The translations under genes were made by a program, and so were the position numbers. Below, piece by piece: positions 28,000 to 41,391 of a DNA stretch of 64,000 nt (positions are counted from its first letter, which is position 1; each line of letters opens with the position of its first letter). Location: contig DATAYG010000079.1 in assembly GCA_036272695.1 (NCBI GenBank), positions 11,214 to 75,213 of the forward strand, written 5' to 3'. Source of the DNA: Rhizomicrobium sp. (lineage in GTDB: Bacteria; Pseudomonadota; Alphaproteobacteria; Micropepsales; Micropepsaceae). The notes beneath the pieces were generated by a model, which was given only the letters and a program-made list of their open reading frames with translations, had not been told where the DNA came from and did not search any database.

Positions 28000-28124
28000 C
28001 ACCCCCGCCCTTTCGGGGCGCTGGGCTCAATGACTGGCCCGCTCGTCGGGCCGGTTGGTCTGGAGGCTAAGTCCCGGACCGTGACATCGAGGGCGCTGCT
28101 TCGGCAGCGCCCTTCGTCGTTTCT
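28000..28124 (+). ncRNA. Candidate structured small RNA (unassigned)
   Basis: Upstream TTGATT-17bp-GATAAG(T); four consecutive hairpins, the last AGGGCGCTGC-TTCG-GCAGCGCCCT (28090-28113). No family assignment possible without Rfam. Confidence 0.35.
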
Positions 28125-28560
28125 ACGGATTGTTGACGGTGATCACGGCACGACGTCCTTCCACCGAGTCGGAAACATAGCCGACGGAACCCACGAATCT
28201 TACATCGATCAGATTGCGATCGACGCCGTTACCTATCAGCGCCTCGGCGACCGTGTTCGCGCGGGCTGCGGACAAGTTTTTGTCCTGTTCGATCGTTCCC
28301 CGCGGGTCCGTGTAACCGATGACGGTCACGCGCACATGTCCGTCCCTCACGATCCGATGCGCGGCGGCGGTCACGACAGTCTTGCCGCCCGCTTCCAGAC
28401 GCGACGACCACGGCGTGAAGAACACGACATAACGCGCTTTCGCGTCCGGCAGCGGCGTCATTGTGCCTGTATGATTCGCCGTCTGTTGCGGCGTCTGGCA
28501 GCCCAGGAGAACCATCCCCGCCACCGCCACCAGAAAAATCCTGCTCGCCATCCGGGTCAT
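28123..28560 (-). CDS. OmpA-family lipoprotein
   Basis: LLGC lipobox; VTVIGYTD...NLSAARANTVAEAL...EGRRAVI OmpA C-domain. Confidence 0.85.
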   Translation of the reverse strand: MTRMASRIFLVAVAGMVLLGCQTPQQTANHTGTMTPLPDAKARYVVFFTPWSSRLEAGGKTVVTAAAHRIVRDGHVRVTVIGYTDPRGTIEQDKNLSAARANTVAEALIGNGVDRNLIDVRFVGSVGYVSDSVEGRRAVITVNNP

Positions 28561-28731
28561 GCGCATCCCCTCCAAATCACAAATTAAACCCTAAAGCCGC
28601 ATGGTGAAAGGATTGTTAAGCCCGTGAGCTGAGCCCGACCGGACCTGCACCGACACATGGCATGCTTCCACAGGCCCGGCATGAGGAAATCCGAATTTGC
28701 ATCGACACCGGCGCCGATGGCGGTAAGACGC

Positions 28732-28760
28732 CCCTCATGCTGAGCCCGTCGAAGCACGCA
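28732..28760. repeat. REP-like element (CTTCGAC.GGCTC core), copy 2, inverse orientation
   Basis: CCCTCATGCTGAGCCCGTCGAAGCACGCA; its reverse complement aligns to 16741-16765. Confidence 0.5.
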
Positions 28761-28865
28761 TATTGCCAGTCCAGGGTGATTGGGTGATCGCCTGCGCTGC
28801 CGAGTTTGCCGCGATCAGGAAGAACAATTGTCCGACGAAGATCTGGTTGCCATCCCCCTCAAACG

Positions 28866-29354
28866 AGCCGGGTGAATGGCAACGCGGAGCGCAAGCACGT
28901 TTCGACAAGCTCTGTGGACCGTCAGAACCTCAATATCCGCATGGGCAATCGGCGCACGACGCGCCTCACGAATGCCTTCTCAAAAAAGACCGCGAACCAA
29001 GCCCACATGATGGCGATCTGCTTCATGCACTGCAATTTCGTGCGAATTCACAACACCCTGAAAATCACTCCGGCAACGGCTGCGGGCGTGTCAACCAAAC
29101 TTTGGGAAATGGCCGATATGGTCACGATCCTGGAAGCCGGGGAACGAAAACAGAGCTTGTCGTGATTTCCAAGACCGGGTGGGCTTTCATTGGCGCCCTG
29201 CTTTTCGCGGCGTTCGCGGTGACCATCGCGACGAACCCCCACAGCTACTTGCATGCTTGGTTTACTGGTCAGTGCCTTACGCGGCCGCTTCCGTCAGACT
29301 GCTACCACCGGCGCCGGCTTTGGTGAGGCGGCATCTTCAAACTGACCCACTACC
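28866..29354 (+). mobile_element. Truncated IS1-like element: transposase 3' fragment + small cargo ORF + right TIR
   Basis: RVNGNAERKHVSTSSVDRQNLNIRMGNRRTTRLTNAFSKK...KLWEMADMV aligns to the C-terminus of 29863..30705; ends in TTCAAACTGACCCACTACC (29336-29354). No left TIR or 5' part found. Confidence 0.85.
29162..29326 (+). CDS. 54-aa putative membrane/secreted cargo protein of the truncated element
   Basis: GTG overlaps the transposase-fragment TGA (GTGA); MISKTGWAFIGALLFAAFAVTIATNPHSYLHAWFTGQCLTRPLPSDCYHRRRLW, hydrophobic N-terminus and two Cys. Confidence 0.4.
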   Translation: MISKTGWAFIGALLFAAFAVTIATNPHSYLHAWFTGQCLTRPLPSDCYHRRRLW

Positions 29355-29395
29355 CGCCGCGGGTAGTGGTACAGTTTGAAAACATTTCGGTTGGG

Positions 29396-29866
29396 CTACG
29401 GGACCGTAATTTCGTAATGCGCTGACCACTGCCCTTGCGTGGCAGAGCCATTGCCTATGAAGTCGGTGAAGAGTTCGATCGTGTGAGGGCCGGGCGCCAC
29501 AGAATAGGAGTCTGACCAGTTGCCACCCCCACACGGCGCGGAGTTTGTGGCTCCTTCGCCAGCGTCAACTTGCGTGCCATCGACCGTCACGATGATATAA
29601 AATTGGTCACCGTTATATTGGGCGCAGAGTTGGTCCATGACACTTAAGGCAACGGTACAGCTAAGGTTGTCCTTTGGGCAATTAATCTTTGTTTTTGCAA
29701 CGCTATTGTATCCCACGGACAGAGGGGTGCCTGGATTTCCAGAATCGAGATAGACTTTAATTATCGTGTGCGGCCCGACACGTTGCGGTTCTGCAGCTTT
29801 ACAATCTGAGTCCGCGCCACCGATCAAAAGAAAACCGCACAATAACGAATAGAAGGGTGCCTTCAT
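29396..29866 (-). CDS. Secreted Cys-containing beta-rich hypothetical protein (IS cargo)
   Basis: ATG overlaps the transposase TGA (ATGA); MKAPFYSLLCGFLLIGGA signal-like N-terminus; alternating beta pattern (FYIIVTVDG, HTIELFT, HYEITVP). Confidence 0.65.
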   Translation of the reverse strand: MKAPFYSLLCGFLLIGGADSDCKAAEPQRVGPHTIIKVYLDSGNPGTPLSVGYNSVAKTKINCPKDNLSCTVALSVMDQLCAQYNGDQFYIIVTVDGTQVDAGEGATNSAPCGGGNWSDSYSVAPGPHTIELFTDFIGNGSATQGQWSAHYEITVP

Positions 29867-30705
29867 TGCCGTAGTTCCCAATCTTCGAGCACCTTCACCA
29901 TATCCGACATTTCCCAGAGTTTCGAGGTCACGCCAGCGGCCATCGCCGGGGTGACTTTCAAGGTCTGGTGAATGCGCACGAAATTGTAGTGCATGAAGTA
30001 GATCGCCATCATATGGGCGTGGTTTGCGGCTTTCTTTGAGAAGGCGTTCGTGAGCCTCGTCATGCGCCGGTTTCCCATACGGATATTGAGGTTCTGGCGC
30101 TCCACGTAGCTTGTGGAAACGTGCTTGCGCTCCGGGTTGCCGTTCACCCGATGCTTCTGCGTCCCAACGCATTCCGGCTGGCTGTAGCGGTGCTGGCCAT
30201 CGGTCGGCTGACCGTAAATCTTCACGAGTTGCGCGTAATCGACGTCGGCGCCGAAAGCCTCTTCGACCGCGTTCAGGTACGCCTTGTGCCCGTCGCTGGT
30301 GAGCTGGACGCGATTTGCGAGGCGCGGGGCCAAATCCGTCATGAAATCAAGTGCCGCTTCGCCATCTCGGTTGCCAACATAGAACGACGCGACAAGCTTC
30401 GTGTCCGCGTCCAGACCTACCCACGTCCAGATATCGCCAGAACCGACCGGAGCGGCTTTCGCGGTCGCGAGGTTCTTCTGCTTGCAATAAGAAAACGCCC
30501 ACGCCTCATCGACCTGAAGGCGCTTGCACGGCAGGTTCACAAGCGTCCGGTCCATGTATTCGGAAAATGCCTGCCCGGCATCCTCCAGAAGCTTAATCAG
30601 CGTGGTCCGGCTGATCCCGGTGAGGCGGGTCATGGAGCGGAGCGAAATGCCTTCGGCCATCATCTGGAGGGCTTGGGCGCGTTTCTCGGTCGGCAGCTTG
30701 TTCAT
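29863..30705 (-). CDS. IS1-family DDE transposase (single ORF)
   Basis: N-terminal HTH (EGISLRSMTRLTGISRTT), LQVDEAWAF, WTWVGLDADTKL, LTSDGHKAY, VERQNLNIRMGNRRMTRLTNAFSKK. Confidence 0.88.
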   Translation of the reverse strand: MNKLPTEKRAQALQMMAEGISLRSMTRLTGISRTTLIKLLEDAGQAFSEYMDRTLVNLPCKRLQVDEAWAFSYCKQKNLATAKAAPVGSGDIWTWVGLDADTKLVASFYVGNRDGEAALDFMTDLAPRLANRVQLTSDGHKAYLNAVEEAFGADVDYAQLVKIYGQPTDGQHRYSQPECVGTQKHRVNGNPERKHVSTSYVERQNLNIRMGNRRMTRLTNAFSKKAANHAHMMAIYFMHYNFVRIHQTLKVTPAMAAGVTSKLWEMSDMVKVLEDWELRQ

Positions 30706-30830
30706 GCCGTTAAACTGGCATTTTAATGCTTGACTGTCAACAAGTATCCACAGTTTTTCTACAATTTAGACGTTTACTTCTACAACTAAGGCGCCTACTT
30801 CAATAAGTGACGCTGTTTTAGGGGTCATGT

Positions 30831-32096
30831 ATGGCGCCCAGATCACCGGACGATTGGCAAATGCTGCATTACGAGGCGATGCAGCTGTTCAGCCCGTCTG
30901 CTCCAGTGGACGAAGCGGACCTTTTTGCGGGGCGCCAAGTTCAGATTCGGAAATTAATCGAAACCGTCCTGGAGCGCGGCAAGCACGCCGTCCTATTTGG
31001 CGAGCGTGGGGTGGGGAAAACTTCACTCGCGAAAGTTTTCCGCGTTTTGTTCCCGGCCCTTGTGAGCGAAGTGCGTCTGATAAGGCAACAGTTGAATGCA
31101 GACGATTCGTTCTCGGAAGTTTGGAAAAAGATATTCAAAGAAATTGAGGTTGTCGTCCGTTCAGATGGCGAGGAAAAGCGCATCACTGCCGCCGATTTTT
31201 ACGATAGCACAATCTCTGCAGATGATGTCGTCCGAGAGATAAAAACAGCATTTGGGGGGAATGAGATTCCTGTGATTGTATTTGACGAATTTGATCGCGC
31301 CACCGAAAGCGTTCGTCGGCAGATGGCAAATGTCGTCAAGGACCTGTCCGACGATTCCGTAAATGCCACAGTTGTCATTGTCGGCGTGTCAGATGACATC
31401 GGCGGCCTCCTCGCGGAGCACGCTTCCCTGAAACGCTGCCTTGAACAAGTGCCAATGCCGAGAATGTCCAATGACGAAATGAAGGAAATCATAAACAAGA
31501 GAATTCCCCGTCTGGGAATGAAGATCGAGCCGAATGGATTGTGGAAAATAGTTATCCTGTCTCGTGGGCTGCCTTCGTATGTCCATTTGCTCGGAGTTTA
31601 TTCCGTTCAGGAAGCCATATCGGGGCGCAAATTGCTAATTACTGAAGCGCACGTTGATGCCGCGATTACTAGGGCCTTAGAAAAGTCACAGGAATCGGTA
31701 CGAAGCGATTACGCGGCTGCGATACACACGAACCGTACGGATACTCTATTCCAAGAAGTATTGTTGTCTTGCGCTCTAGCTAAGACCGATGATCGCGGGT
31801 TTTTCACGCCCCAATCCGTTGTCGACCCGTTGGCATCTATACTCAAGAAGTCCGTTAAGATCGCGAACTTTCAAAACCATTTGAAAGAATTCATCGGTAA
31901 AGATAGAGGTGCCATACTTATACGCCGTGGGAAGGAACGCGCCTACAAGTTCCGTTTCTCTGACCCTATGATGCAACCTTACATCATCATGAGGGGCGTG
32001 GAAGGTGGCCTGATTCAGACTAATGCTCTTGACGTTCTTTCTTCGCCTGAGCAGCCGCAGTTCCAGTTCCCCACCGCGCCTCAGAAGCCTTCTTAG
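30831..32096 (+). CDS. AAA+/STAND-like ATPase with probable C-terminal winged helix (IS cargo)
   Basis: LFAGRQVQIRKL, Walker A GERGVGKT, Walker B VIVFDEFD, GLPSYVHLLG; AT-richer than the host genes. Confidence 0.75.
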   Translation: MAPRSPDDWQMLHYEAMQLFSPSAPVDEADLFAGRQVQIRKLIETVLERGKHAVLFGERGVGKTSLAKVFRVLFPALVSEVRLIRQQLNADDSFSEVWKKIFKEIEVVVRSDGEEKRITAADFYDSTISADDVVREIKTAFGGNEIPVIVFDEFDRATESVRRQMANVVKDLSDDSVNATVVIVGVSDDIGGLLAEHASLKRCLEQVPMPRMSNDEMKEIINKRIPRLGMKIEPNGLWKIVILSRGLPSYVHLLGVYSVQEAISGRKLLITEAHVDAAITRALEKSQESVRSDYAAAIHTNRTDTLFQEVLLSCALAKTDDRGFFTPQSVVDPLASILKKSVKIANFQNHLKEFIGKDRGAILIRRGKERAYKFRFSDPMMQPYIIMRGVEGGLIQTNALDVLSSPEQPQFQFPTAPQKPS

Positions 32097-32304
32097 CAAT
32101 TTCTCGGCGCCTTTCTGGGGTAAGGCGTTCGGCCCTCGATTTTCCGCCCTTCAATCCACCCTTACGGGCAAATTCGTGGACACGGTCGATTGGCTTTGGA
32201 GTCGGCTCTGTGGCCTTATCCTCCACCTCTCCGGTCAAGATATCCCCGATAAGCTTGCCTAGCTGGACGGGATCGCGGGGGCGTTTGAGGCGCTTGGCTG
32301 TCAT
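32020..32304 (-). CDS. Small basic protein (KRPRDP / RKGGLKGG...RRREIAKKA motif) next to the IS end
   Basis: MTAKRLKRPRDPVQLGKLIGDILTGE...FARKGGLKGGKSRAERLTPERRREIAKKASEARW; KGG-like basic motif. Confidence 0.7.
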   Translation of the reverse strand: MTAKRLKRPRDPVQLGKLIGDILTGEVEDKATEPTPKPIDRVHEFARKGGLKGGKSRAERLTPERRREIAKKASEARWGTGTAAAQAKKERQEH

Positions 32305-32557
32305 GTTCGCAATATGGCATCCGGGGCGGCAGGATGCGAGCGTGGCTTAGGCGGGGCGGATTTCAAACTGTACCACTACCCCGCCGCGCCTTCCCTTGCC
32401 CCCCACCCCGCTTTCCTATATACGCCGCGGCCTTATGGCGGCTGCGGTCGCGGGACGCCCCTTTCGAGGCGCATGCCGGATGGTCCGGCTTCTCCGCGAG
32501 CCAATGCGAGCCTGGGCACCCTGCCCGGGTACGTACCGCAGCCCGGAAAGGGACGAG

Positions 32558-32935
32558 ATGGCTCTTTACGAGCACCTCCTGATCGCGCGCCAGGATATCA
32601 GCGCGCAACAGGTCGACGCACTGGCGACGCACCTGAAAACCATCGTCGAAGGCGAAGGCGGCAAGGTCGAGAAGCAGGAATATTGGGGCCTGCGCTCGCT
32701 CGCCTACCGTATCAAGAAGAACCGCAAGGGGCATTATGTGCTCCTGAACATCAATGCGCCGGCCAAGGCGGTGCACGAACTGGAACGGCAGCTCAGGATC
32801 AATGAAGACGTGCTGCGCTGCCTGACCGTGAAAGTCGACCAGTTCGAGCAGTCGAATTCCAACAAGGCAAGGCGGGAGCGTGACGGCGAGCGCAAGCCCG
32901 AAGGCGAAACCCAAACCCAGGAGGCCGCGATATGA
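32558..32935 (+). CDS. rpsF: 30S ribosomal protein S6
   Basis: [13 protein letters not shown]...[20 protein letters not shown]...INEDVLR. Start ATG 32558. Confidence 0.97.
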
Positions 32936-33171
32936 GCCAGGCCGGCCAGCGGCGCCCGTTTTTCCGGCGCAAGAAAACCTGTCCTTTCTCCGGCGCAAAC
33001 GCACCGCGGATCGACTACAAGGACGTCAAGCTCCTGCAGCGATTCATCTCGGAGCGCGGCAAGATCGTTCCCTCGCGCATCACCGCGGTGTCTTCGGGCA
33101 AGCAGCGCCTGCTCGCGCTCGCCATCAAGCGCGCGCGTTTCATGGCGCTTCTGCCTTACGTCGTGAAATAG
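32932..33171 (+). CDS. rpsR: 30S ribosomal protein S18
   Basis: [10 protein letters not shown]...IDYKDV...[12 protein letters not shown]...ARFMALLPY; single Cys, so probably the Zn-free type. Confidence 0.97.
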
Positions 33172-39945: not shown

Positions 39946-41391
39946 TCACGCCCAACGATATCCGCGCCGCGCAACGAGCACATCGGCGCCGGCTGGTCCG
40001 CGCGAGCCGGCTGGGTAGGGCTCCGCAGCGAGGCTCGTCTGCTCCCAGGCCGCGGCGATGCCGTCGATCCAGGCCCAGGCGGATTCCACTTCGTCGGCGC
40101 GGACGAAGAGCGTCGGATTTCCGGCGAGCGCGTCGAGAATGAGCCGCTCATAGGCGATACGCCGCCTTTGCGCGCGGAATGCCTCGGTGAGGCTCAGATC
40201 GAGCGACAGCGGGCTGAGCCGCATACCTTCCGCCGTCAGCCCCGGCGTCTTGTTCATCAGCTGCAGCGAGATGCGCTCTTCGGGCTGCAGCGTGATAGTG
40301 AGACGGTTTGGAATGAGATCGCCCTGCCCGAATGCGGAGTGCGGCACGCATTTGAACTGGATGACGATCTGGGTGTGACGGTCGGCGAGCCGCTTGCCGG
40401 TGCGCAGATAGAACGGCACGCCTTCCCAGCGCCAGTTCTGCACCTCCGCTTCGATGGCGACGAAGGTCTCCGTCTCGCTCGCAGCACCGCCCGCTTCCTC
40501 CGTGTAGCCCGGAACGGGATGCCCGTCTGCGCGGCCTTCGACATATTGTCCGCGCACGGTCCTGGCTGATACGTCCGCCGGCCCGATTGGCCTGAGCGAA
40601 CGCAGCACCTTGGCCTTCTCGTCGCGCACCGCGTCGGGATCGAGCCGCGCCGGGGGCTCCATCGCCACGAGACACAGGAGCTGGAGCACATGGTTCTGCA
40701 CCATGTCGCGCAACGCGCCATAGGCGTCGTAATAACTCCAGCGTCCCTCGATGCCGATGGATTCGGCGACAATTATCTGCACGTGATCGATGCACGACCT
40801 GTTCCACAGCGGCTCGAACAGCACATTGGCGAAGCGCAGCGCGAGCAGGTTCTGCACCGTCTCCTTGCCGAGATAATGATCGACGCGGAAAATGCGGCTC
40901 TCGTCGAAGGCCCGGCCGAGACAGGTGTTGATGGCGCGGCAGCTGGCCAGATCATGCCCGATCGGCTTCTCCACCACGATCCGGCTCAAGGGCGTCGCGA
41001 GCCCGGCCGCATGCAGATTGGCGCAGGCCGCGCCATAATGCTGCGGCGACAGCGAGAGGTAATAGACGTTCCTGTCGCCCGTCATGCGCGAGAGATTTTC
41101 GAAGTCGCCGCGCGCGCCCGCATCGACCCGGCAATAGTCGAGGCGGTTGCCGAAACTGCGCCAGGCCGCGTCGTCCAATTTCTCGCCGCGTTCGACGAGC
41201 ACGTCGCGCACGAGCGCACGGAATCCGCTGTCGTCGAGTTCGGCGCGCGCCGCCCCGATGATGCGCAGCCGGCCGTCGAGCAGCCCGTCCCGTTCGAGGT
41301 AATAAAGCGACGGCAGCAGCATCCGTCGCGACAAGTCCCCTGTCGCGCCGAAAATGATCAGCGTATCCGCCGCCGCATCCATGTCTGCCAT
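39946..41391 (-). CDS. zwf: Glucose-6-phosphate 1-dehydrogenase
   Basis: IFGATGDL, RVDHYLGKETVQN, RDMVQNH, WEGVPFYLRTGKRL, AYERL. Confidence 0.97.
   Translation of the reverse strand: MADMDAAADTLIIFGATGDLSRRMLLPSLYYLERDGLLDGRLRIIGAARAELDDSGFRALVRDVLVERGEKLDDAAWRSFGNRLDYCRVDAGARGDFENLSRMTGDRNVYYLSLSPQHYGAACANLHAAGLATPLSRIVVEKPIGHDLASCRAINTCLGRAFDESRIFRVDHYLGKETVQNLLALRFANVLFEPLWNRSCIDHVQIIVAESIGIEGRWSYYDAYGALRDMVQNHVLQLLCLVAMEPPARLDPDAVRDEKAKVLRSLRPIGPADVSARTVRGQYVEGRADGHPVPGYTEEAGGAASETETFVAIEAEVQNWRWEGVPFYLRTGKRLADRHTQIVIQFKCVPHSAFGQGDLIPNRLTITLQPEERISLQLMNKTPGLTAEGMRLSPLSLDLSLTEAFRAQRRRIAYERLILDALAGNPTLFVRADEVESAWAWIDGIAAAWEQTSLAAEPYPAGSRGPAGADVLVARRGYRWA

Follow-up and report, generated by a model that had tools for sequence, protein, structure and literature searches.

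Classical IS1 is a compact insertion sequence (IS) of ∼0.77 kb that carries no passengers and in which insA and insB′ are joined by a –1 frameshift. The IS1 family, according to ISfinder, has terminal inverted repeats (TIRs) with a GGnnnTG tip and target site duplications (TSDs) of 8–9 bp. Passengers in relatives of IS1595 and of IS1 were reportedly noted by Siguier et al. in 2009 (Res Microbiol). Transporter IS (tIS) are IS-like units in which TIRs and TSDs enclose passenger genes (PMC7986276, PMC9330008, TnCentral preprint 10.1101/2021.05.26.445724). Here, we describe two related elements in a 64,000-nucleotide stretch of Rhizomicrobium sp. DNA (assembly GCA_036272695.1, contig DATAYG010000079.1, positions 11,214–75,213), the whole of which is called the window below. 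Positions 28848–32388 of the window probably hold two members of a large IS1-family clade of unit transposons of the tIS kind, whose cargo changes without a dedicated cassette system.

As in the tIS of the IS1595 and IS66 families and an isolated IS6 example, the passengers of this clade lie inside the TIRs of a TSD-flanked unit, and the enclosed cargo is unrelated to transposition (restriction-modification (R-M), toxin-antitoxin (TA), proteases and others). The clade is an IS1-family tIS that differs from those tIS in its IS1-type transposase, its second conserved gene (SML), its two cargo intervals (slots 1 and 2), its hypervariable slot-2 cargo, tightly packed as single open reading frames (ORFs), and its end-directed insertion, flush with resident ends. 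With classical IS1 it shares the transposase family, the TIR tip, the TSD and a small gene that precedes the catalytic gene just inside the left end. Unlike classical IS1, it has a single-ORF transposase, a size of 1.9–4.9 kb, the extra SML gene and the two cargo intervals. The promoter of classical IS1 lies in the left inverted repeat, whereas the clade transposase has its own internal promoter region. A first-pass annotation of the window, made from the sequence alone, had set these elements against an IS1 without passengers; this holds for classical IS1, but passenger-bearing IS-like elements are an established category. If our reading is correct, the tIS category would widen to the IS1 family, which is absent from a curators' overview, and a simple transposon made of a 280-residue DDE enzyme and a small protein would rank among the major carriers of accessory genes in the Alphaproteobacteria, Acidobacteriota and Bacteroidota of soils.

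Two IS1-type elements in the window

Of the two related elements at 28848–32388, element B is intact and element A is truncated at its 5′ end. Their features, in window coordinates, are:

28848–29354: element A, an older relative of element B whose left part is lost
28848–29165, plus strand: C-terminal transposase remnant of element A, matching residues 179–280 of the element B transposase
29162–29326, plus strand: orf54, a hydrophobic ORF of 54 residues in the right slot of element A, a candidate gene
29336–29354, minus strand: right TIR of element A, GGTAGTGGGTCAGTTTGAA on the minus strand, an exact pattern match
29354–29361, no strand: left copy of the element B TSD, CCGCCGCG, from sequence reading and the TSD test
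29362–32380, minus-strand orientation: element B, 3019 bp, with exact TIRs and an 8-bp TSD
29362–29380, plus strand: element B TIR at the right-arm (transposase-distal) end, an exact pattern match
29396–29866, minus strand: orf156, slot-2 cargo of element B, 156 residues with an N-terminal signal-like segment
29863–30705, minus strand: element B transposase, a single ORF of 280 residues with an N-terminal helix-turn-helix (HTH) and an IS1-type DDE domain
30706–30770, minus strand: conserved promoter/operator-like region upstream of the transposase start, with TTGACA and short palindromes
30831–32096, plus strand: slot-1 cargo of element B, a P-loop NTPase of 421 residues (nSTAND1/AAA_22/ORC-Cdc6-like)
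32020–32304, minus strand: SML, basic and helical, 94 residues, just inside the left end on the transposase strand
32362–32380, minus strand: element B TIR at the SML (left) end, an exact pattern match
32381–32388, no strand: right copy of the element B TSD, CCGCCGCG, from sequence reading and the TSD test

From its left to its right end, element B consists of a TIR, SML, the ATPase gene, an AT-rich stretch of ∼60 nt, the transposase gene, orf156 and the second TIR, and its ends are perfect 19-bp inverted repeats (GGTAGTGGTACAGTTTGAA). The first-pass annotation had drawn this element accurately, as an intact 3019-bp unit with an ATPase between the transposase and a small basic gene. It had also seen a different gene starting exactly on the transposase stop codon in each element, and these coordinates are exact. 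In element A, the GTG of orf54 overlaps the stop of the remnant (GTGA, 29162–29165), and in element B, TCAT at 29863–29866, which is ATGA on the minus strand, overlaps the ATG of orf156 with the transposase stop. The two ORFs are unrelated and each has a TIR close behind, with the orf54 stop 9 nt before it and the orf156 stop 15 nt from it.

The exact TIR pattern (GGTAGTGnnnCAGTTTGAA) occurs at three sites in the window: 29336–29354 (minus strand), 29362–29380 (plus strand) and 32362–32380 (minus strand). When up to three mismatches are allowed, four matches are obtained against 0.2 expected, a number reached in no shuffle. The fourth match, at 40294–40312 (GATAGTGAGACGGTTTGGA, three mismatches), is weak and probably due to chance.

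Element B inserted into the 8 bp abutting the right end of the older element A; the first base of its left TSD copy is the last base of the element A TIR (29354). An independent soil-metagenome assembly (Logan) spans the A/B junction, and contigs from the same metagenome join the right end of element B to another flank (loose end at 29363). A metagenome variant diverges inside the transposase N-terminus (window position 30681), and loose contig ends point to further copies or relatives of element B in the same soil sample. In element A, the ∼100 last transposase codons survive in an ORF at 28806–29165 that shares 75% identity with residues 179–280 of the element B transposase (tblastn). The nearest relatives of this tail reach 77% identity at most, and no SML, left TIR or transposase N-terminal part was found upstream of it.

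A constant scaffold with two variable intervals

Loci of the clade were gathered from a scan of a genome collection (79), a metagenome scan (80) and look-ups of the closest relatives (6), giving ∼165 in total, to which the L numbers below refer. Complete elements could be delimited in 49 cases, window included. They measure 1944–4946 bp, with 1068–2951 nt from the left end to the transposase start and 9–2973 nt from the transposase stop to the right end. Perfect 8-bp TSDs surround the whole unit in 45 of the 49, and all but one keep the order TIR–SML–slot–transposase–slot–TIR (48/49), which bears out the fixed scaffold proposed earlier. Across elements with differing cargo, the conserved DNA comprises the first ∼75 nt together with SML, ∼55 nt before the transposase, the transposase gene and the last ∼18 nt.

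These comparisons show a core made up of the 19-bp TIRs, the 8-bp TSD, SML and a single-ORF HTH-DDE transposase preceded by its own conserved promoter/operator-like region of ∼55 nt. Two intervals tolerate foreign DNA: slot 1, from the SML stop to the transposase promoter, and slot 2, from the transposase C-terminal tail to the right TIR. Selection would retain only the two core modules and the ends. In element B, the passengers are a STAND/ORC-like ATPase in slot 1, probably with its own divergent promoter, and a secreted protein of 156 residues in slot 2. If the present reading holds, the clade would offer a compact natural scaffold with two slots that accept arbitrary ORFs.

The minimal form of the element was recently active, as two 100% identical 1944-bp copies occupy separate sites with differing TSDs in one metagenome-assembled genome (MAG; L023 3933–5876 and L024 3933–5876). 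Identical copies at two sites, the sign that the whole unit moves, were found for this minimal element with its slot-1 ORF only; for cargo-rich elements, the signs of mobility are TSDs and one alternative flank in metagenome reads. A 1223-bp deletion derivative (L043, L115–L117, L123), that joins the left repeat to the transposase gene at codon ∼80, recurs in several samples and was considered as a mobilized non-autonomous copy. This was rejected, as all copies share their flanks and represent one orthologous locus. An apparent occurrence of the protein P0004 in two contexts (L084, L085) was likewise set aside as the same sequence with differing gene calls.

In minimal elements of ∼2 kb, slot 1 nearly always holds an ORF of 145–190 residues that is coiled-coil-like at its N-terminus and winged-helix-like at its C-terminus (L006, L017, L023, L036, L066, L130, L142 and others). 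Profile links among these ORFs are weak (hhalign P of 5e-5 to 3e-3 for several pairs, with a range to 0.6), and they may represent a third, semi-core gene that evolves fast. In L135, slot 1 is almost empty. An extra ORF of ∼60–78 residues was seen between the left TIR and SML at L084, L089, L119, L113, L039 and L018, and this gap may be a third, small variable interval.

Assignment to the IS1 family

The element B transposase matches Pfam DDE_Tnp_IS1 (PF03400) at 26.1 bits (cut-off 24.1), with HTH families also matched at its N-terminus. Its best NCBIfam model is IS1 (NF033558; E = 1.9e-13, 50.8 bits), ahead of IS1595 and IS6, and the alignment places residues 6–149 on model positions 42–169. 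Because 50.8 bits is below the equivalog cut-off of 100 for NF033558, the transposase is a distant member of the IS1 family. Membership of the IS1595 family was rejected: the IS1595 model NF033547 gives 26.4 bits, under its cut-off of 75 and weaker than IS1, and no match to Pfam DDE_Tnp_IS1595 was found at E ≤ 0.1. The TIR tip GGTAGTG and the 8-bp TSDs (45 of 49 elements) fit the values for the IS1 family. The insA/insB′ frameshift, the 0.74–1.2 kb size and the lack of passengers that mark classical IS1 are not found in this clade, which leaves single-ORF IS1 subgroups possible. One of these, the ISfinder subgroup ISMhu11 with its long, single-ORF members (∼0.9–4.6 kb), may be the same or a neighbouring group.

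The transposase is widespread. A search of 5.8 billion proteins returned at least 8000 clusters of homologues at 90% identity, with E ≤ 1e-5 for all scored ones. Homologues with a source name are called 'IS1 family transposase' (NCBI, JGI). Relatives at 57–59% identity are found on plasmids of the cultured strains Mesorhizobium loti 582, Methylocapsa polymorpha, Acidiphilium multivorum JZ-6 and Hoeflea sp. Records of cultured strains give 'IS1 family transposase' only, name SML 'histone H1' or hypothetical, and have no mobile-element feature annotated.

Packing and borders of slot 2

Among 98 non-redundant right arms, 18 are empty and 80 are filled, the latter with main ORFs that belong to 66 families. 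The cargo is closely packed. In 58 cluster representatives of up to 1.1 kb, one plus-strand ORF spans a median of 0.86 of the arm, and 53% of these arms are at least 85% filled by one ORF, compared with 0.4% of shuffles. Cargo stops lie 0–20 nt from the right TIR. As such packing leaves no room for a promoter, slot-2 genes would most likely be co-transcribed with the transposase gene. Judged by their spacing, they would often be translated by re-initiation, helped by the codons for LEDWE near the transposase C-terminus (GAGGATTGGGAA), a Shine-Dalgarno-like sequence 10–20 nt upstream of the cargo start.

The same features could be produced by a dedicated capture or exchange system, in which promoter-less single ORFs are swapped, integron-like, at a fixed point at the transposase stop with coupling built in. 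Slot 2 usually contains exactly one ORF packed from stop to TIR, 66 families are spread over 80 filled arms, and unrelated cargo follows transposase 3′ ends that are 90–95% identical, with the break always directly after LEDWE. In ∼13 of the 66 families, moreover, a 4-nt start/stop overlap is available. We nevertheless consider such a system very unlikely. The remaining same-strand cargo begins anywhere between –21 and +74 nt of the stop, in all three frames (∼17:17:9 by hand tally), and the overlap frame is not preferred. Cargo is convergent in family K3 and in a RES-Xre pair from Acidiphilium, and some right arms contain several genes or nested insertions (an R-M pair at L080; L013, L026, L027). 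ATGA is also present at the transposase stop of cargo-less elements, and any TGA stop preceded by A, G or T automatically yields a start codon. Finally, slot 1 is equally variable without any coupling.

The borders of the cargo point the same way. Alignments of close pairs lose homology just after ...VLEDWE, 3–10 codons before the transposase stop, so that the transposase tail, the stop and the cargo start are all within the variable segment. The breaks after LEDWE and, in SML, after ...RW mark the borders as ends of coding constraint on the two core genes and not as a sequence-defined site. No integrase or other recombinase gene, attC-like or other att-like site, conserved motif or hairpin was found at the cargo borders of clade elements. 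Two proposals of the first-pass annotation are not supported by these results: cargo starts are not anchored at the transposase stop, and no signature of a gene-capture or exchange mechanism was found. The junction between conserved and variable DNA lies upstream of that stop.

The likeness to integrons lies in a single respect. Like integron cassettes, slot-2 genes are mostly promoter-less, diverse single ORFs at a fixed place downstream of a resident promoter. Unlike integrons, the clade yielded no IntI-type recombinase, attI or attC, and its cargo borders are not defined by sequence. Integron membership was rejected, as no recombinase is among the core genes and no conserved motif or hairpin marks the borders.

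Cargo diversity and turnover

When ORFs were called greedily and clustered, the 49 complete elements yielded ∼90 cargo ORF clusters, most of the cargo being without a Pfam match. The passengers are accessory genes for R-M, TA, ATPases that are candidates for phage defence, proteases and nucleases, together with many small proteins that are secreted or lipoproteins. Recognizable examples are an HTH protein and ImmA/IrrE peptidase with a partner ORF, an AAA_21/AAA_15 ATPase, a MazF toxin with a partner, a DUF4258 and HTH pair, an N6/N4 methylase fused to Mrr, a proteasome-like protein, ClpP, DUF3800 and DUF6998. Acyltransferase_3, an NYN nuclease, T5orf172/MUG113, a deaminase, OmpA, a glyoxalase and the convergent RES-Xre TA pair were also found, and close relatives carry a BglII endonuclease with an MT-A70 methylase, or Mrr_N. 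PADLOC matches among the cargo of relatives were HEC-04, PD-Lambda-2_B and MTase_II (type II methylases). Many slot-2 proteins are small, have signal-peptide or lipoprotein-like N-termini and belong to no family. Transposases of the IS256 (Mutator) and IS3 (rve) families are nested inside elements (L016 58–1314 in element coordinates; slot 2 of L027 and of L013), and at L027 the IS256 copy splits a methylase-Mrr cargo gene.

Tn3-family and Tn7-like transposons also carry TA or defence cargo (PMC7157771, PMC8649781), and the cargo classes are alike (TA, R-M, defence ATPases). In contrast to these transposons, the clade has a different and far simpler machinery, with one 280-residue DDE transposase, no resolvase and no TnsABC, and is ten-fold smaller. 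If our reading holds, its fast-turnover passengers would be R-M, TA, candidate defence and surface genes, and the clade would be a rich, easily delimited supply of uncharacterised conflict-system candidates.

The contents of the two slots, as judged from these comparisons, assort independently and are swappable relative to the backbone. The methylase-Mrr cargo K1 is paired with four differing slot-1 contents, and the HTH-peptidase pair K0+K2 is found with four slot-2 states, namely three unrelated cargos or none. Slot-2 partners of the ATPase family are orf156 in the window, an ORF of 217 residues in L007, one of 97 residues in L082 and one of 236 residues in L160; the orf156 family, in turn, occurs with the ATPase in the window or with two other genes in L010. 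Close backbones tell the same story. L010 and L011 have 95% identical transposases and unrelated slot-2 contents, and element B and L160 have 77% identical ATPases and an unusual SML tail in common, with slot 2 again unrelated. For L014 and L025, which lie in one MAG, the transposase 3′ ends match at 92% identity and the cargo differs completely. In the three closest transposase relatives examined (87–90%), slot 2 holds BglII with MT-A70, an ORF of 97 residues and Mrr_N, respectively. In L048 and L058, the transposase (94%), SML (92%) and flanking DNA (88–93%) are far more alike than the K3 slot-2 cargo (41%). The variable cassettes of the first-pass annotation are thus well supported, and its concern that homologous elements might carry constant cargo was not borne out.

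We infer that cargo turns over by ordinary processes. One is homologous recombination between diverged co-resident relatives, which would be eased by their insertion beside one another; the others are illegitimate recombination, the nesting of insertions and strong compaction through deletion. Several points weigh against this account and the wider reading of the clade. All comparisons are among species-level or metagenomic relatives that have diverged heavily at synonymous sites (81% nucleotide versus 95% amino-acid identity), and among these no recent swap with a mapped junction was found. The evidence for co-transcription and coupling of slot-2 genes consists of their spacing, and the ORF-exact packing with a recurrent break after LEDWE could reflect an unseen specific mechanism. 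The clade may already be catalogued in ISfinder, and orf54 may be no gene.

Insertion beside resident ends

In eight cases, an element end lies 7–8 bp, the length of the TSD, from another family member, a miniature or a solo-end remnant. These abutted ends, each with a gap of 7–8 bp, are:

window, 29336–29380: abutted ends of elements A and B
L002, 1647–1692: abutted ends
L010, 6356–6401: abutted ends, where the 8 bp between them are the element's own TSD
L030, 6021–6066: abutted ends
L073, 3041–3085: abutted ends
L073, 3172–3217: abutted ends
L129, 3203–3248: abutted ends
L135, 4298–4343: abutted ends

Going by these positions, new copies recurrently prefer the 8 bp next to a resident end as their target, far beyond chance for random insertion. 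If so, Mesorhizobium loti 582 and Acidiphilium multivorum JZ-6 would be among the cultured hosts open to study of this apparent end-directed target choice. Diverged relatives also reside together in single genomes (L014/L025; L001/L030/L075). Abutment and co-residence may offer a plausible route to hybrids, through recombination within the transposase gene or the use of non-cognate outer ends.

This route can be taken further, to a view in which the transposase itself drives end swapping: abutted pairs are resolved via non-cognate outer ends or by recombination in the transposase gene, and cargo shuffling is a by-product of target choice. The eight independent abutments, window included, the sharing of genomes by diverged relatives and the independent assortment of the two slots all fit this view, which we hold to be a minority possibility. 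None of the loci yielded a hybrid that retains abutted ends as an internal relic, and the abutment partners are often tiny or solo-end remnants. End swapping also shuffles existing cargo and leaves its first acquisition unexplained. Turnover by the ordinary processes set out above remains the preferred account. A bolder extension, to which we give a low probability, would make the clade a transposase-only gene-shuffling platform, with end-targeted insertion, hybrids from abutted pairs and slot 2 as a promoter-less expression site for single ORFs that is fed by the transposase promoter and the Shine-Dalgarno-like LEDWE codons. Such a platform would be a functional analogue of integrons for defence, conflict and surface genes in soil bacteria that needs no site-specific recombinase, and SML would represent a novel type of factor for transposition or target selection.

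Passengers of the window

The slot-1 ATPase of element B matches nSTAND1 (1.5e-13) and AAA_22 (5e-9) in Pfam. Its gene points away from the transposase gene and shares 77 nt with the 3′ tail of SML, and a promoter-like site lies on the plus strand at 30737–30765. Homologues in the same slot and orientation are present at L007, L082 and L113 (34–39% identity) and at L160 (77%). PADLOC gave no match for the ATPase, orf156 or SML, so that the window cargo fits none of its models of known anti-phage defence systems.

The passengers could instead be transposition machinery, with the ATPase as a target-selection helper like TniB, IstB or MuB and the slot-2 protein as an accessory factor. The ATPase scores 22.1 bits against TniB, just under the cut-off of 22.4, its C-terminal tail is winged-helix-like, and slot 1 of minimal elements nearly always holds one of the weakly related coiled-coil and winged-helix-like ORFs described above. 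We find this highly improbable. ATPase homologues occur at ∼5 distinct relatives among ∼165 loci, and most complete elements, among them the 1944-bp L023/L024 that is being actively copied, are without one. No cargo is present in slot 2 of 18 of the 98 arms, slot 1 is almost empty in L135, and the cargo families, with R-M, TA and proteases among them, bear no relation to one another. A helper-ATPase transposon of the kind of IS21 (IstB), Tn7 (TnsC), Tn5053 (TniB) or Mu (MuB) was rejected for the same rarity of the ATPase and its TniB score under the cut-off.

The slot-2 protein orf156 has no Pfam or NCBIfam match, and its gene has a G+C content of 0.52 versus 0.586 for the transposase. A homologue with 41–49% identity occupies the same slot of L010, and another, P0242 in L166, has 50% identity and keeps both the ATGA overlap and the adjacent TIR; the search of 5.8 billion proteins returned one homologue only. 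By this homology, orf156 is a real gene. L166 (3881–4490) is a decayed mini-derivative of 610 bp among ordinary chromosomal genes, in which a degenerate left repeat is followed by the final 35 codons of the transposase, the ORF with its ATGA overlap and, 3 nt past the stop of this ORF, a right repeat. The homologue beside a transposase tail in L166 indicates that the association of orf156 with the tail is old, and its retention there that cargo can survive loss of the transposase, as it perhaps has in element A.

The standing of orf54 as a gene is less certain: no homologue of it was found in the 79 genome loci, the 80 metagenome loci or the window. It is quite possible, if not the view we favour, that orf54 and perhaps other very short slot-2 ORFs are open frames in a spacer left to decay in a dead element. 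Element A, itself truncated, is immobile, a GTG start arises at any TGA preceded by G, and a rough estimate of our own puts the chance of an open frame of this length in this arm at ∼10%. Against this, orf54 spans 97% of its arm, as verified cargo does, its G+C content at third codon positions is 0.745, and intact cargo is retained by the truncated element L166. It matches the family pattern of a single arm-filling ORF, which alone is not significant, and we treat it as a candidate gene.

The SML gene

SML is found just inside the left end in 48 of the 49 complete elements; its strand in the alphaproteobacterial group is that of the transposase. Its core of ∼80 residues contains the motifs KRLKRPRDPVQLGKLIGDILTGQVED and GGLKGGKARA..L.PE.R.EIA.KAA..RW, in which R-P, G-K..GDILT and GG.KGG..R are invariant; conservation ends after ...RW, and the tail beyond is variable. 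A word search returned 1026 clusters of homologues, and an exhaustive profile search 10,630 representatives at E ≤ 1e-3 and 1,717 at E ≤ 1e-10, all of them small and some with the C-terminal half repeated. In some other small proteins, this half (GG.KGG..ARA...RW) forms 2–4 tandem repeats. An AlphaFold2 model is helical, with a predicted local distance difference test (pLDDT) score of 79. No match was found in Pfam, NCBIfam, a PDB profile search or a Foldseek search of the model against the PDB.

The position of SML mirrors that of insA in IS1. The transposase already contains an InsA-like HTH (NF033558 positions 42–169), so SML is an extra core gene and not an InsA homologue. From its position and conservation, it is probably a DNA-binding regulator or accessory factor of transposition. 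The names 'YciG' or 'general stress protein YciG' and 'histone H1' given to its relatives (P0207, P0374 and L168 1575–1784, the last on the Mesorhizobium loti 582 plasmid) look composition-driven and were not adopted.

The region upstream of the transposase

The ∼55 nt 5′ of the transposase are conserved among elements with unrelated slot-1 cargo (∼27 loci). They contain palindromes (GGCATGAT..ATCATGCC, or GCAT..ATGC) beside a TTGAC box. In the window, this region (30706–30770) has a G+C content of 0.39 and doubles as the divergent intergenic region to the ATPase gene. A consensus promoter scan of the window gave no convincing sigma-70 site for the transposase gene, whose mRNA may be leaderless. 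An AAACTGT-like motif that resembles the inner TIR lies at exactly –53 of the transposase start in 15 of the 49 elements, against a background of 1% per window. The conserved region may be an operator or a transposase-binding site.

Genomic setting

An Rfam search of window positions 28000–33000 gave no match. The host neighbours of the two elements are a gene for an OmpA-like lipoprotein on one side and rpsF-rpsR-rplI on the other. Element B ends ∼170 bp upstream of rpsF, the first gene of this ribosomal protein operon (32381–32559). The G+C content of the window is a mosaic, with 0.51–0.52 in the cargo, 0.586 in the transposase gene and 0.62–0.64 in the host DNA.

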